This document shows, one piece after another, positions 28,568-32,254 of a stretch of DNA of 64,000 bases. The DNA is taken from positions 152,151 through 216,150 of the forward strand of contig CAZRVN010000001.1 of assembly GCA_964603595.1 (NCBI GenBank), given 5' to 3'. The stretch comes from an uncultured Actinomycetota bacterium. GTDB taxonomy: Bacteria; Actinomycetota; Humimicrobiia; Humimicrobiales; Humimicrobiaceae. A model generated the notes under the pieces. The model was not told where the DNA came from and searched no databases. It saw only the letters and a list, made by a program, of their open reading frames with translations. Made by a program: the position numbers and the translations under genes. Positions within the stretch are counted from its first letter, which is position 1; the number at the start of each line of letters is the position of its first letter.

Positions 28568-30919
28568 ATGGGTAGAATAGTGGTAAGAGGAATAAAATCG
28601 ATTTTCAAAAATAAAAAGGAATTTTTAGAATTTAAAAAGATTCCCGTATGCAGCTATCAAAAGGATATAGATAGTGAAATAAAAGAATCCGGCTTTACCA
28701 GAAAAGAAGCAATAGACCTGCTTGAGCAAATGTATATGATCAGAGCCCTGGAAGAAATGCTGGCTGAAATAAGTGCAGGCGTCTATAAACCCCTGCCAAA
28801 ATTTTCATATATAGGTCCCACACATCTTTCAATAGGGCAGGAAGCTGTTCCTTCAGGAGCAACCTATTCTATAGGTAAAGATGACCTTATAACAAGCTCT
28901 CACCGTGGCCATGGTGACGCTATGGCGAAAGGATATAATACAATAAAAAAAATGGATAAAGATGAACTTTTAGCACTATTAAAATCGCGTATTAGATATC
29001 TGGAAGCTATAGGAGAGAAGTTAAGTAGCAGCGATTCATTGGATAATTTGCAGGAAAAAGCCCTAAAAATTCATGTTTACAGAATGATTTCAGAACTTTT
29101 TGGAAGAAACCATGGTTACTGCCGTGGTGTTGGCGGAGGAATGCATATTGCTGACTTTGAAACAGGACATCTCGGCGCAAATGCAATTGTAGGAGGTCAT
29201 GTACCTATTGCAGTAGGTGCTGCCATGTCATTAAGGTATAAAAAACAGGACAGTATTGTGTTATGCCTGGCAGGAGATGGCTCCTTTAGTAATGGAGTAG
29301 TTTTGGAGTCATTAAATATAGCTTCAATGAAACAGTTTAAAAATGGGCTTATGAGCAGAAAGTTTGGGGTACCAATAATATTTGGCATAGTGAATAACCA
29401 GTATGCTATGTCAGGGCAAGAAAATGGAGAAATCACAGGTATTGATTTCCTAGCACGTAGAGCTGCTGGATTTGATTTAGACATTATGCATGCGGAAGTT
29501 GTAGACGGAATGAATGTTCTGGCAGTTGCTGACTCAGTAAAAAGGGCCAGAGAAATAATAAAAGAAGGCAAGGGCCCTGTATTAATTGAATTTATGACTT
29601 ACCGCTATAAGGGACACAGTCTATCTGACCCCCTGACATATAGGGATCGTGAAGAACTTAAATGCTGGAAAGAACGTGATGCAATAACAACCTATGAAGG
29701 AAAAATTACAGGAGCAAATTTTCATGAAAAACAGGAAGGAAAAATAACCCGGAAGGAAATAGAATCTTTAAAAGAAAAAGTATATAACAGAAATGAATCT
29801 ATGGCTGTTTTTGCTTCAAATGCTCCTTTTCCAGAAGACGACAGTATACTTAAGCATCTTTTTTCTTTAAAAGCTGAAAAGGAAGTCCCAGAAGAATTTT
29901 CAAATCCTAAATTAGAATCCCCGGTACCTAAATATAAGAGGGATTCAAATGGAAGAATAAATTCACGTTTTGCAATAAGGGAAGCATTAGTGGAAGAAAT
30001 GGCACGTGACAGCAGAGTGGTATTATATGGGGAAGATGTTGCAGATTACGGAGGAGCTTTTGGAGTAACAAATGACCTACTCAGGACTTTCGGAAGAAAC
30101 AGGGTCTTTAATATTTCTATATCTGAATCAGGAATGGTCGGGTCTGCAGTAGGAATGGCCGTAACTGGGCTAAAACCGGTGATAGAGATTATGTATAATG
30201 ATTTTATAATGCAGGCACTTGGTCAAATTGGCAATCAGGCAGCAAAATGGAGCTACATGTCTGGTGGCCAGATAAGTGTTCCTATGGTTATAAGGACTAC
30301 AATTGGAGGTGGTAAGGGATATGCTGGGCAACATTCACAATCACTGGAAGCTCTTGTTACTCATATTCCCGGTCTAAAAGTAGTAGCTCCTTCAACACCT
30401 TATGACTTTAAAGGGTTACTTAAATCAGCAATAAGGGATTATAATCCGGTAATATTTTTCGAACAGCAATTTATTTACAATAGCATGGGAAATGTTCCGG
30501 AAGAAGAATATCTTGTTCCAATAGGAAAGGCAAATGTGCTTAAAAAAGGCAGCGATGTTACTATTATATGCTGGTCATATATGGTAGAGCAATCAATTAA
30601 AGCAGCAAAAAAATTGGAAGAAGATGGAATCTACGCAGAGGTAATAGATATAAGGACTCTTATACCACTGGACATAGATACCATAGCTAACTCGGTCAAA
30701 AAAACAGGCAGGGTAGTGGTAACTGCTCAGGAAGTTGAACAAAGTGGTTTTATGTCAGAATTGGTAACACAGATACAGGAAAAAGTATTTGACTGGCTGG
30801 ATGCACCAATACAGAGACTAGGTGCTCCTAACGGCATTCCGCCTTCAGCAATGAATCTGGAAAAAATATTCTTACCTGATTCTGAGAAATTGATTAATAT
30901 TATCAAAAATAATTTTTAG
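28568..30919 (+). CDS. Fused E1 alpha/beta component of a TPP-dependent 2-oxoacid/acetoin dehydrogenase complex
   Basis: N-terminal half carries the E1-alpha TPP-binding region (GDG-x-SNG). C-terminal half is E1-beta/transketolase-like. The 783 aa length fits an alpha plus beta fusion. Confidence 0.8.
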   Translation: MGRIVVRGIKSIFKNKKEFLEFKKIPVCSYQKDIDSEIKESGFTRKEAIDLLEQMYMIRALEEMLAEISAGVYKPLPKFSYIGPTHLSIGQEAVPSGATYSIGKDDLITSSHRGHGDAMAKGYNTIKKMDKDELLALLKSRIRYLEAIGEKLSSSDSLDNLQEKALKIHVYRMISELFGRNHGYCRGVGGGMHIADFETGHLGANAIVGGHVPIAVGAAMSLRYKKQDSIVLCLAGDGSFSNGVVLESLNIASMKQFKNGLMSRKFGVPIIFGIVNNQYAMSGQENGEITGIDFLARRAAGFDLDIMHAEVVDGMNVLAVADSVKRAREIIKEGKGPVLIEFMTYRYKGHSLSDPLTYRDREELKCWKERDAITTYEGKITGANFHEKQEGKITRKEIESLKEKVYNRNESMAVFASNAPFPEDDSILKHLFSLKAEKEVPEEFSNPKLESPVPKYKRDSNGRINSRFAIREALVEEMARDSRVVLYGEDVADYGGAFGVTNDLLRTFGRNRVFNISISESGMVGSAVGMAVTGLKPVIEIMYNDFIMQALGQIGNQAAKWSYMSGGQISVPMVIRTTIGGGKGYAGQHSQSLEALVTHIPGLKVVAPSTPYDFKGLLKSAIRDYNPVIFFEQQFIYNSMGNVPEEEYLVPIGKANVLKKGSDVTIICWSYMVEQSIKAAKKLEEDGIYAEVIDIRTLIPLDIDTIANSVKKTGRVVVTAQEVEQSGFMSELVTQIQEKVFDWLDAPIQRLGAPNGIPPSAMNLEKIFLPDSEKLINIIKNNF

Positions 30920-31003
30920 TAACAAAATTGTAAATTTTTATATATATAAAAAACTTTTATATTCAACAATATAAGCTTTATGTAAGAAGTCAGGAGGATA
31001 AGC

Positions 31004-32254
31004 ATGTATGATGTAATTATGCCAAAGTTAGGGCTTACTATGGAATCAGGAACTATTGAAAAATGGCATAAGAAAGAAGGAGATAAAGTAAAAAAAGGGG
31101 ATGTTCTATTTGAAGTAATGACTGATAAGGTTACACTTGAAGTTGAATCTTATTATTCCGGATATCTTAAAAAAATATTATCAAAAGAAGGAGAAGAAGT
31201 ACCTGTAAAAGAAGTATTAGCTTATATTGGCGAAAAAGACGAAAAAATATCATCCATAAACAAAAAAAGCTCCAAACAAGATATAGGAAGAGAAAATGAT
31301 AAAAAATTGCAGAAAATACGAACAAAAGCCAAAAAAAAAGAAAAAGTTAAAGATACATTATTAAAAGAAAAAATAAAAATATCACCGCTTGCAAGAAAAC
31401 TTGCAAAAGAGATGGATGTTAATGTTGCTAGGGTTGAAGGTACTGGTCCCAGTGGGAGAATAACTAAAAAAGATATTTTAAAGTATTCCAAGGACAGTGA
31501 GGAAGAGGATAGTCGCGAGCCAGTAAGGGAAAGATTAGCAGCAGTCCAGGAACAAAAGATAAAAATAAGAACAGTATCTAATCTTAAAGGTACAAGAAAG
31601 ATAATAGCTGAAAGGATGAGCTATTCAAAGTCTAGTATCCCTCACATCGTTTTAAATTCAGTAGCAAATGCTACAAGTCTTATTAAGATGAGAGAATCAC
31701 TTAAAGATAAGGTATTATCCAAATATAAAATAAAAATAACCTATACAGATTTTCTACTTAAAATATGCGCAGTTGCACTCAGTGAAAACCTTGAATTGAA
31801 TTCAACTCTAAAAGTCGACAATTATATTATTTATGAAGATGTAAATATGGGAGTTGCTGTTTCTTCAAAAGGGGGGCTTGTGGTTCCTACTATTTTTAAT
31901 TGTGACAGTCTCGGCATACTCGAGATTTCAAAGAAAAGAAAGGAATTAGTAGAAAGAGCAAGAGATGGAAAGCTCAAGCTTGATGAAATTCAAAACGGAA
32001 CATTTACCATGACCAATCTTGGCATGTTTGGAATAAGATCTTTTTCAGCTATAATAAACCCTCCCCAGTCTGCTATACTTGCAGTAGGTGAGATTTATAA
32101 TGCTTCGGTATTTATTAATGATAAAATAGAAAAGAATTCATTTATTAATTTAACATTATCTTGCGACCATAGAATTATAGATGGAGAAATAGGCTCAAGA
32201 TTCCTAAAAAGGGTAGTGGAACTAATAGAAAGCCCTGAGATTCTTGTTATATAA
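31004..32254 (+). CDS. Dihydrolipoamide acyltransferase (E2) with lipoyl, E3-binding and catalytic domains
   Basis: Lipoyl-lysine motif (VMTDKVTLEVE), peripheral subunit-binding domain (ISPLARKLAKE), and the catalytic DHRIIDG. Confidence 0.85.
   Translation: MYDVIMPKLGLTMESGTIEKWHKKEGDKVKKGDVLFEVMTDKVTLEVESYYSGYLKKILSKEGEEVPVKEVLAYIGEKDEKISSINKKSSKQDIGRENDKKLQKIRTKAKKKEKVKDTLLKEKIKISPLARKLAKEMDVNVARVEGTGPSGRITKKDILKYSKDSEEEDSREPVRERLAAVQEQKIKIRTVSNLKGTRKIIAERMSYSKSSIPHIVLNSVANATSLIKMRESLKDKVLSKYKIKITYTDFLLKICAVALSENLELNSTLKVDNYIIYEDVNMGVAVSSKGGLVVPTIFNCDSLGILEISKKRKELVERARDGKLKLDEIQNGTFTMTNLGMFGIRSFSAIINPPQSAILAVGEIYNASVFINDKIEKNSFINLTLSCDHRIIDGEIGSRFLKRVVELIESPEILVI

Follow-up and report, generated by a model that had tools for sequence, protein, structure and literature searches.

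Results

A fused E1 and a lipoyl-bearing E2

In a 64-kb stretch of chromosomal DNA from an uncultured Actinomycetota bacterium (positions 152,151 to 216,150 of contig CAZRVN010000001.1, G+C content about 31%, referred to as a whole as the window), a gene for a fused E1 alpha/beta subunit (28568-30919, plus strand; Pfam, NCBIfam) is followed by one for an E2 dihydrolipoamide acyltransferase (31004-32254, plus strand; Pfam, motifs). An earlier note on this DNA had described the pair as a single-chain E1 of 783 aa and a lipoyl-bearing E2 of a dehydrogenase complex, and both the open reading frames (ORFs) and their Pfam domains bear this out. Judging from sequence and genomic context, the two enzymes probably turn a sugar-derived keto compound, and not pyruvate, into acyl-coenzyme A (acyl-CoA).

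Counted from its first ATG, the E1 is 783 aa long, and a single ORF spans both halves, so that it is not an enzyme with separate alpha and beta chains (alpha2beta2 type). Within the one chain, Pfam recognizes E1_dh (6.5e-51), Transket_pyr (3.4e-43) and Transketolase_C (9.4e-37). The alpha half, with the pyrophosphate-binding (PP) domain for thiamine diphosphate (ThDP), covers approximately residues 1-440 (nt 28568-29887) and is joined by a linker (approximately residues 441-463) to the beta half, which holds the pyrimidine-binding (Pyr) and C domains (residues 464-783, nt 29957-30919). The true start is probably the GTG at 28580, which would give a protein of 779 aa, since no spacer separates the ATG from a GGAAAGG Shine-Dalgarno sequence and 779 aa is also the length of most homologues. 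The ThDP motif GDG...NN lies at residues 236-277, and further motifs are SSHRGHGD (110-117), GGGMHIADF (189-197), YRYKGHSLSD (345-354) and QHSQS (588-592). Relative to human PDHA1 the chain carries insertions of about 44 aa (residues 125-168) and of 11 aa (254-264). An AlphaFold2 model built on a 10-sequence alignment was unusable (mean predicted local distance difference test score 54.9, predicted template modelling score 0.46); the 44-aa insertion, predicted to form helices, was the sole part modelled with confidence.

The E2 (416 aa, with an AGGAGG Shine-Dalgarno sequence 8 nt 5' of its ATG) matches Biotin_lipoyl (3.1e-19), E3_binding (1.2e-14) and 2-oxoacid_dh (1.6e-75). Its lipoyl domain (residues 4-75) has a lipoylatable Lys42 in MTDKV (39-43), the E3/E1-binding, or peripheral subunit-binding, domain occupies residues 124-159, and the catalytic domain (190-414) has His389 in DHRIIDG (388-394). 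It stays under every equivalog cutoff, the top model being TIGR01349 (346.9 versus 445 bits). As read from the translations, the domains and catalytic motifs of both E1 and E2 are intact. Other E2 architectures occur among the homologous loci compared below: the E2 beside the fused E1 of L024 (12279-13013) lacks a lipoyl domain and consists of the catalytic domain only (245 aa), and that of L008 (19163-20198) is divided into a 110-aa lipoyl protein and a 230-aa catalytic protein.

Placement of the E1

Both the ThDP motif and the GHS(L/M)SD loop are retained in the alpha half, YRYKGHSLSD aligning with human YRYHGHSMSD, and the histidines of reductive acylation (human alpha-His263 in GHSMSD and beta-His128 in QHSQ) are present in the E1. 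The histidine of GHSLSD (His350) and that of the beta QHSQS (His589) are invariant in 10 diverse fused E1 proteins, including copies that lack an E2; their counterparts act in lipoyl acylation in the E1 of pyruvate dehydrogenase (PDH).

His112 of SSHRGHGD sits where human PDHA1 has a tyrosine (AYRAHG). In the E1 of PDH and of branched-chain 2-oxoacid dehydrogenase (BCKDH), the Tyr of YRxHG, which is Y102alpha of the Geobacillus stearothermophilus (Gst) enzyme and Y113alpha of human E1b, lodges between the diphosphate and the sulfur of the thiazolium ring (PMC2663715). Every fused and split E1alpha recovered has the HRGHG and GGSMHIAD motifs, a set that spans Streptococcus operons with an E3 of ~570 aa, Enterococcus, Virgibacillus, Sporolactobacillus and rhizobial plasmids. 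Because these motifs are found in all of them and the PDH-type Tyr is replaced, the fused E1 would belong to an acetoin-dehydrogenase-like branch and not to the PDH branch. We take the Streptococcus operons to be acoABCL, and the E1alpha motifs would match those of biochemically characterised AcoA.

The alpha half falls far under the PDH equivalog cutoffs (TIGR03182, 244.8 versus 393.85 bits; TIGR03181, 155.8 versus 411.35 bits). The nearest solved structures to the E1 are PDH and BCKDH E1 subunits, and the search of the PDB returned no solved fused E1. Its PP domain is E1_dh, with no Transketolase_N or XFP-type PP domain present, and models of transketolase and of 1-deoxy-D-xylulose-5-phosphate synthase (DXS) reach 52-112 bits against cutoffs of 395-575.

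The cluster around the pair

The interval between hypA and rny holds a plus-strand cluster of kinases, dehydrogenases, an importer, E1 and E2. Its first FGGY kinase (18817-20337, Pfam) scores 374.1 bits against the NCBIfam XylB model, whose cutoff is 380.25, and also resembles gluconokinase (348 bits). It is followed by a zinc-dependent, polyol-type alcohol dehydrogenase (Zn-ADH; 20969-22021) and a short-chain dehydrogenase/reductase (SDR; 22517-23278), both recognized by Pfam and NCBIfam, and by a CUT1-type ATP-binding cassette (ABC) importer comprising a solute-binding protein (23538-24989, SBP_bac_1) and two permeases (25119-26000 and 25997-26812, BPD_transp_1); this importer block (23538-26812) contains no ATPase gene. 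A second FGGY kinase (26898-28436, FGGY_N/C) lies directly 5' of E1, separated from it by 131 bp; its top NCBIfam model is XylB (318.8 bits, under the cutoff of 380), and its counterpart in the related locus L002 has the equivalent position and 70% identity. Pfam thus confirms the same-strand position of the pair after an FGGY kinase and an ABC importer that the earlier note had reported. A gene for a SorC-family sugar-phosphate regulator (15964-16923, Pfam) and one for a mannitol-1-phosphate-5-dehydrogenase-like (MtlD-like) protein (14584-15804, Pfam; 278 bits against the NCBIfam MtlD models, under their cutoffs) are on the minus strand and point away from the operon (14584-16923). In a terminator scan there was no terminator-like site in the gap between the second kinase and E1 or in that between E1 and E2, and we infer that the polyol operon is co-transcribed with E1-E2.

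The housekeeping flanks consist of arg genes, PBP1, tyrS and hypA upstream and of rny, miaB, miaA, dapF, hflX, lexA, ilvC, ispH and aroA downstream. Between the SorC regulator and the first kinase (17599-18646), a ribose-type ABC transporter has left decayed remnants. A 61-aa ORF encodes a lipoprotein signal peptide and the first part of a periplasmic binding protein; behind it, in another frame, a chimeric ORF of 259 aa joins a piece of Peripla_BP_4 to the C-terminal portion of an ABC ATPase. A transaldolase/FSA-family gene (63206-64000, minus strand) runs off the end of the window; it is 61% identical to the transaldolase that intervenes between E1 and E2 in the related locus L094.

Neighbourhoods of the fused E1 in other genomes

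The E1 has thousands of homologues, the nearest of which (55-83% identity) come from metagenomes and from metagenome-assembled genomes (MAGs) labelled Actinobacteria/Actinomycetota or Candidatus Humimicrobiaceae; 139 loci were collected for neighbourhood comparison. A single ORF matched both E1 halves in 50 of 89 loci (the window left out). The window's lineage shares a clade of true fusions, 760-820 aa long, with the Planctomycetes-Verrucomicrobia-Chlamydiae (PVC) phyla, Armatimonadota and Spirochaetota, and shorter fusions are found in Chloroflexota, Actinomycetota and Alphaproteobacteria. In five phyla, fused-E1 orthologues with 43-83% identity lie beside sugar genes, often overlapping them.

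The window's own clade (61-83% E1 identity) provides about 21 distinct contexts, and in about 19 of them sugar, polyol or pentose-phosphate genes are directly beside E1. Kinases precede E1 in several: the order is FGGY-E1-E2 in the window, L093 and the L002 group, FGGY-E1-transaldolase-E2-E3-RpiA in L094 and L097, URO-D-like-XylB-E1 in L092 (where XylB, at 522 bits, is above the cutoff and thus a true xylulokinase), Rpe-FGGY-E1-FGGY-sugar isomerase in L112 and PfkB kinase-E1-HUMPS-SIS in L111. Polyol dehydrogenase genes are the partners in others, with E1-MtlD-like(-ADH-like-DeoR) in L103, L105 and L108 (junctions of -1 to 25 bp) and, at a spacing of 99-530 bp, in L096, L101 and L102, E1 and MtlD-like genes adjacent in L113, L116 and L122, and ZnADH-E1 in L109 and L110 (gaps of 4 and 13 bp), the two being adjacent also in L121. 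Split transketolase-transaldolase-E1 (L104) and isomerase-like-E1-URO-D-like (L007) were further arrangements. Similar couplings are found in Armatimonadota (E1-MtlD-E2, L024), in Chloroflexota (ZnADH-SDR-MtlD-E1-E2 with every junction overlapping in L041; also L033, L046 and L035), in Spirochaetota (L021, L027) and in Verrucomicrobiota (L011).

E1 proteins with 61-83% identity to that of the window are flanked by at least six FGGY orthogroups, which share less than 35% identity among themselves; this suggests that the E1 takes a convergent intermediate and not the own product of each kinase. On the same figures, E1 copies that are specific to their kinases are unlikely. The idea that the fused E1 replaces a missing transketolase was rejected as a general rule, since the operon of L104 has a split transketolase.

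An E2 is adjacent in only about 4 of the 21 contexts, and this bears on the proposal that the fused E1 is mainly a lipoate-independent carboligase or lyase, akin to transketolase or DXS and acting on sugar phosphates, with the E2 accessory or serving another complex. The single-chain PP-Pyr-C order, as in transketolase and DXS, and the transaldolase, Rpe, RpiA, HUMPS and SIS genes beside E1 would fit such an enzyme. Against it, His350 and His589 are invariant even where there is no E2, L104 already holds its split transketolase, and in the window, L093 and L002 the E2 is directly 3' and conserved; we consider this proposal very unlikely.

Several other genes near fused E1 deserve mention. URO-D-family proteins recur (L007 12371-13558, L092 6997-8160, L107 8031-9233, L111 2828-5037, and four copies in L125); they resemble MtaA/CmuA corrinoid methyltransferases, all under the family cutoffs, and one idea is that they demethylate O-methyl sugars. 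Directly 5' of the E1-MtlD-like-ADH-like-DeoR genes of L101 are four genes for a NiFe hydrogenase with NAD(P)/FAD-binding and Fe-S subunits (1704-5683), which would fit disposal of reducing equivalents from polyol oxidation. L111 carries split and fused E1 genes on one contig: ahead of the fused E1 are a PfkB kinase and a split E1alpha/E1beta pair, HUMPS-family (3-hexulose-6-phosphate synthase/keto-gulonate-6-phosphate decarboxylase type) and SIS-domain genes follow it (12483-13742), and a relaxase is nearby.

Split versions in cultured bacteria

Split E1-E2-E3 sets with SorC regulators and sugar transporters or kinases are found on Rhizobium and Sinorhizobium meliloti plasmids and in Brevibacillus, Virgibacillus and Enterococcus. 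Genes for a sugar kinase and a CUT1 ABC system occupy one strand in S. meliloti Rm41 (pRM41A) and in Rhizobium sp. N324, and SorC-oxidoreductase-E1alpha-E1beta-E2-lpdA, followed by lipA or fba, the opposite one. Brevibacillus laterosporus has genes for components IIA/IIB/IIC of a phosphotransferase system (PTS) and a PTS regulator, then E1alpha-E1beta-E2-lpdA-SorC, and Virgibacillus oceani a Gat-type PTS with a ribulose-5-phosphate-4-epimerase-like gene, the four E1-E2-E3 genes, SorC and a sorbitol PTS. A Rossmann-type oxidoreductase of 415-441 aa accompanies SorC-E1alpha-E1beta-E2-E3 in both Enterococcus and Rhizobium/Sinorhizobium (L040, 7715-8959; L136, 7604-8929; L138, 7609-8934). The rhizobial oxidoreductase and the 415-aa protein 5' of the Enterococcus operon share 39% identity, and a scan of this Enterococcus member found no NCBIfam match. 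The oxidoreductase may make the substrate of the split complexes.

Genes for a PfkB kinase and a class II aldolase are also part of the rhizobial clusters and would suit a keto-deoxy-acid route. Together with the classical chemistry of the family and the likeness of the window's first kinase to gluconokinase, these genes speak for oxidative decarboxylation of a 2-oxo sugar acid, or of a small 2-oxoacid such as hydroxypyruvate, made further down the pathway. The window cluster, however, has no dehydratase, lactonase or aldolase able to yield a 2-oxoacid, and the aco-type motifs point, if weakly, to non-carboxylate substrates, so that this route appears highly improbable for the window.

A full-text search of the literature found no characterised sugar-linked complex of the aco type; the only related item was a prediction for the rhamnose locus of Caldicellulosiruptor bescii. 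There, an acetoin-dehydrogenase-like enzyme of three subunits (Athe_0702-4) is predicted to dispose of L-lactaldehyde, and the paper with this prediction lists it as not assigned (Rodionov et al. 2021, PMC8579813).

The missing E3

No dihydrolipoamide dehydrogenase (E3) follows the pair, as the earlier note had said, and none was detected in the 64 kb: no ORF of the window has a class-I disulfide-reductase motif, and tblastn of the window with two E3 proteins from relatives, with LipB and with LipA gave no match. Neither a transketolase N-half nor a class II aldolase is encoded there. The absence of E3 is not a peculiarity of the system. In the close relative L094 an E3 gene comes directly after E2 (6333-7718; an in-frame TAA at codon 168 marks it as either a pseudogene or an assembly error, an intact homologue, P0140, being 92% identical), and Verrucomicrobiota and Lentisphaerae loci likewise have E3 after E2. 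The lineage carries many E3 genes 65-71% identical to that of L094, and relatives have a second operon, SorC-E1alpha-E1beta-E2-114-aa protein-LipB(minus strand)-E3, with genes for a ribose-type ABC transporter, an SDR and an FGGY kinase in front of it. This split operon with E3 (L131, L133, L135) comes from the same three samples as fused E1-E2-LipB loci (L002, L003, L004). The E2 paralogues of the fused and split operons are 56-62% identical (the window's E2 56%), and both have the E3-binding domain.

Because relatives pair a second, E3-bearing operon with the fused E1-E2 cluster, provision of E3 in trans would be the simplest explanation of its absence. By analogy we infer that E3 is also shared in the window's own genome; the search for an lpdA gene elsewhere that the earlier note had called for led to the second operon of relatives, and not to a gene from the window's own genome.

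A 250-aa LipB/LplA-like gene lies on the minus strand between E2 and rny in L002 (13818-14570), whose E1 is 75% identical to the window's, and such a gene also follows E2 in the split operon (L130, 9181-9906). The window either lost this gene or never had one.

The interval between E2 and rny

The 575-bp non-coding stretch that the earlier note had set in the place of E3 does lack an ORF of note (32255-32828), and yet it belongs to rny. It aligns with the L002 stretch between the LipB/LplA-like gene and rny (the gene order there being E2, LipB/LplA-like on the minus strand, rny). A promoter scan found a sigma-70-like promoter, TTGACT-17-TAAAAT (32434-32462, plus strand), which is common to L002; with it goes a plus-strand 5' leader of ~370 nt with blocks conserved in the L002 alignment. 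The leader ends in a terminator-like hairpin, likewise common to L002, which the terminator scan placed at 32780-32802, 27 nt before the rny ATG. Mean column identity with L002 is 81% alignment-wide, and the stem of the hairpin carries base changes. A second hairpin with a T-run is near 32645-32670. As predicted from these features, the interval 32255-32828 is the promoter and leader of rny and not part of the dehydrogenase system, and the leader may be an attenuator or an autoregulatory element. At the gathering threshold Rfam matched only a tRNA in the whole window, and the leader is therefore not a described family. The gap was also considered as a decayed lipoylation gene, an idea rejected since tblastn finds no LipB/LplA-like remnant in the window.

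Discussion

A proposed sugar-pathway role for the pair

The explanation that we favour, and that we judge to be about evenly poised between right and wrong, is that the pair is an acetoin-dehydrogenase-type ThDP/lipoyl system dedicated to a sugar pathway and acting on an alpha-hydroxy-carbonyl sugar intermediate. The ABC importer would bring in a polyol or sugar, which the Zn-ADH, SDR and MtlD-like enzyme would oxidise and the FGGY kinases phosphorylate. The fused E1 would bind the resulting alpha-hydroxy-carbonyl compound and form a hydroxyalkyl-ThDP carbanion, as the E1 of acetoin dehydrogenase does with acetoin; were the substrate a ketose (phosphate), an aldose phosphate would be released at this step. 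E1 would then acylate the lipoyl-Lys42 arm of E2, E2 would hand the acyl group to CoA, and dihydrolipoamide would be re-oxidised by an E3 encoded elsewhere, for which the second operon of relatives (SorC-E1alpha-E1beta-E2-LipB-E3) offers a precedent.

The substrate class and product are likewise only predicted, and the candidates allow no firm ranking, a ketose phosphate or a 1-deoxy-ketose phosphate being the likeliest. A 2-ketose phosphate (xylulose 5-phosphate or fructose 6-phosphate) would give glycolyl-CoA or, with a phosphoketolase-like dehydration, acetyl-CoA in a redox-neutral cycle for which E3 is not needed. Acetyl-CoA would also come from 1-deoxy-ketose phosphates, which as methyl acyloins resemble acetoin most closely. 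A third candidate class, as proposed for C. bescii, is that of alpha-hydroxy-aldehydes (lactaldehyde, glycolaldehyde). More tentatively, it is conceivable that a lipoyl-dependent "ketolase" splits (1-deoxy-)ketose phosphates, the products of many different polyol and sugar operons, into an aldose phosphate and an acyl-lipoyl group, from which E2 releases acetyl- or glycolyl-CoA. Such an enzyme would parallel phosphoketolase but be linked to CoA, and one or two E2/E3 cores encoded elsewhere would serve many E1 copies scattered over sugar operons.

A number of observations weigh against a dedicated sugar-pathway system. Its basis in gene neighbourhood is circumstantial, and some orthologues (L005, L010, L012, L091) have only housekeeping genes around them and none for sugar metabolism close by. 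Most sugar-cluster copies lack a nearby E2, so that a lipoyl route is for them only putative. An E3 of the window's own genome was not located, the E3-bearing second operon being found among E3 homologues in relatives only. The label "aco type" for the E1alpha motifs is operational, and the Streptococcus operons that carry them have not been shown to encode acetoin dehydrogenases. We also know of no fate, in these organisms, for glycolyl-CoA derived from ordinary ketoses.

Some of these observations suit instead the pyruvate dehydrogenase of the organism, or one of two, which would lie behind a sugar operon by chance or through co-regulation and have its E3 elsewhere. Pyruvate is a convergent intermediate just as well, the top solved homologues are PDH/BCKDH E1 and PDH E2, the top model for E2 is TIGR01349, and the E1-E2-E3 operons of Verrucomicrobiota and Lentisphaerae, like the housekeeping settings, would be natural for such an enzyme. 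The beta half passes the NCBIfam PDH E1 beta subfamily model NF006667 (365.3 bits, cutoff 321), staying under the equivalog NF008854 (363.5 bits, cutoff 454); PDH and BCKDH beta subunits score alike for it in the PDB search, and the alpha half is about equally similar to human PDH E1alpha (117 bits) and to aco-type proteins. Yet the alpha half and the E2 fall well short of the PDH equivalogs, the Tyr of PDH and BCKDH is replaced by His, overlaps with MtlD-like and Zn-ADH genes in five phyla and the position after a xylulokinase would be hard to explain, and a NADH-forming PDH would be ill-suited to the fermentation of reduced polyols. A pyruvate dehydrogenase is, in our view, rather unlikely.

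We regard as similarly doubtful an ordinary system for the cleavage of acetoin or 2,3-butanediol, in which a fused AcoAB and an AcoC would be served by the Zn-ADH and SDR as butanediol dehydrogenases and the sugar kinase and transport genes would be unrelated neighbours. The two dehydrogenases could indeed have this function: the SDR scores 210.8 bits against a meso-2,3-butanediol dehydrogenase model, and the Zn-ADH presumably belongs to the sorbitol/threonine/butanediol-dehydrogenase branch of the MDR family. Moreover, the E1alpha motifs are common to the split proteins treated as aco-type, and acetoin systems are used by the anaerobes Pelobacter and Clostridium magnum. However, the SDR score is under the model cutoff of 270, acetoin needs none of the XylB, MtlD-like, transaldolase, transketolase, RpiA and Rpe functions to which the E1 orthologues are coupled, and the window has neither an AcoR-type regulator nor AcoL, its regulator being of the SorC type.

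The suggestion of the earlier note that the pair serves a sugar pathway, and not pyruvate, thus appears strengthened by broad comparative evidence, namely the contexts of the window's own clade, those in four other phyla and the E1 motifs, even if acetoin and pyruvate each keep a share of the probability. At the same time the system would be a variant within a known family of dehydrogenase complexes, its absent E3 and the 575-bp gap having ordinary causes.

Significance

The complexes that oxidise 2-oxoacids and acetoin are textbook examples of enzymes, and few substrates are known for them. The branch described here is tied to the breakdown of sugars and polyols, and its carriers are for the most part anaerobes not yet in culture, from at least five phyla (Actinomycetota-affiliated MAGs, Verrucomicrobiota, Spirochaetota, Armatimonadota and Chloroflexota). 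If its substrates are sugar-derived hydroxy-carbonyl compounds, it would represent a new way to cut sugars directly to acyl-CoA and a new enzyme for engineering, and the metabolic reconstructions of sediment lineages, in which such genes are now annotated as "pyruvate" or "2-oxoisovalerate dehydrogenase", would change. Since the split version has culturable carriers, the question is directly testable.

Comparison with known systems

The pair most resembles the AcoA/AcoB-AcoC-AcoL systems (Bacillus subtilis, Pelobacter carbinolicus, Clostridium magnum, streptococcal acoABCL) in its alpha/beta-type ThDP E1 with HRGHG and GGSMHIAD motifs, in a lipoyl E2 with a subunit-binding domain and a DHRxxDG catalytic site and, as proposed here, in alpha-hydroxy-ketone C-C cleavage followed by acyl transfer to CoA. 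Unlike these, its E1 is a fusion of 779-783 aa with two insertions (~44 and 11 aa), it has no adjacent E3 or AcoR-type regulator, and it is part of a kinase/polyol-dehydrogenase/ABC-importer operon with a SorC-type regulator; its E1 orthologues are coupled to pentose-phosphate-pathway genes, and its substrate is probably not acetoin. With the PDH complexes that have an alpha2beta2 E1 (G. stearothermophilus, human) it shares the three E1 domains, the GHS(M/L)SD loop, the beta QHSQ His and an E2 with lipoyl, peripheral subunit-binding and catalytic domains, but it differs from them in the His that replaces the Tyr beside the thiazolium (Gst Y102alpha, human Y89), in the fusion, in an alpha half far under the PDH equivalog cutoff, in an E3 outside the operon and in its sugar-catabolism context.

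Athe_0702-4 of C. bescii (PMC8579813), likened here by its description, is also an aco-type E1/E2 set in a sugar-utilisation regulon of an anaerobe, with a predicted role on a sugar-derived carbonyl compound; that enzyme, however, has three subunits and a rhamnose/aldolase context, whereas the window cluster, which lacks both aldolase and isomerase, seems geared to polyols. Phosphoketolase and the catabolic split transketolases of pentitol, apiose and sulfoquinovose operons are, like the fused E1, ThDP enzymes of sugar and polyol operons, with a comparable position after xylulokinase or beside transaldolase, and they cleave ketose phosphates to an aldose phosphate and a C2 unit. Their PP domain is Transketolase_N or XFP and not E1_dh, so that homology is at the level of the superfamily only, and their acceptor is an aldose or phosphate, in contrast to the lipoyl arm and CoA that would take up the acyl group in the system described here.

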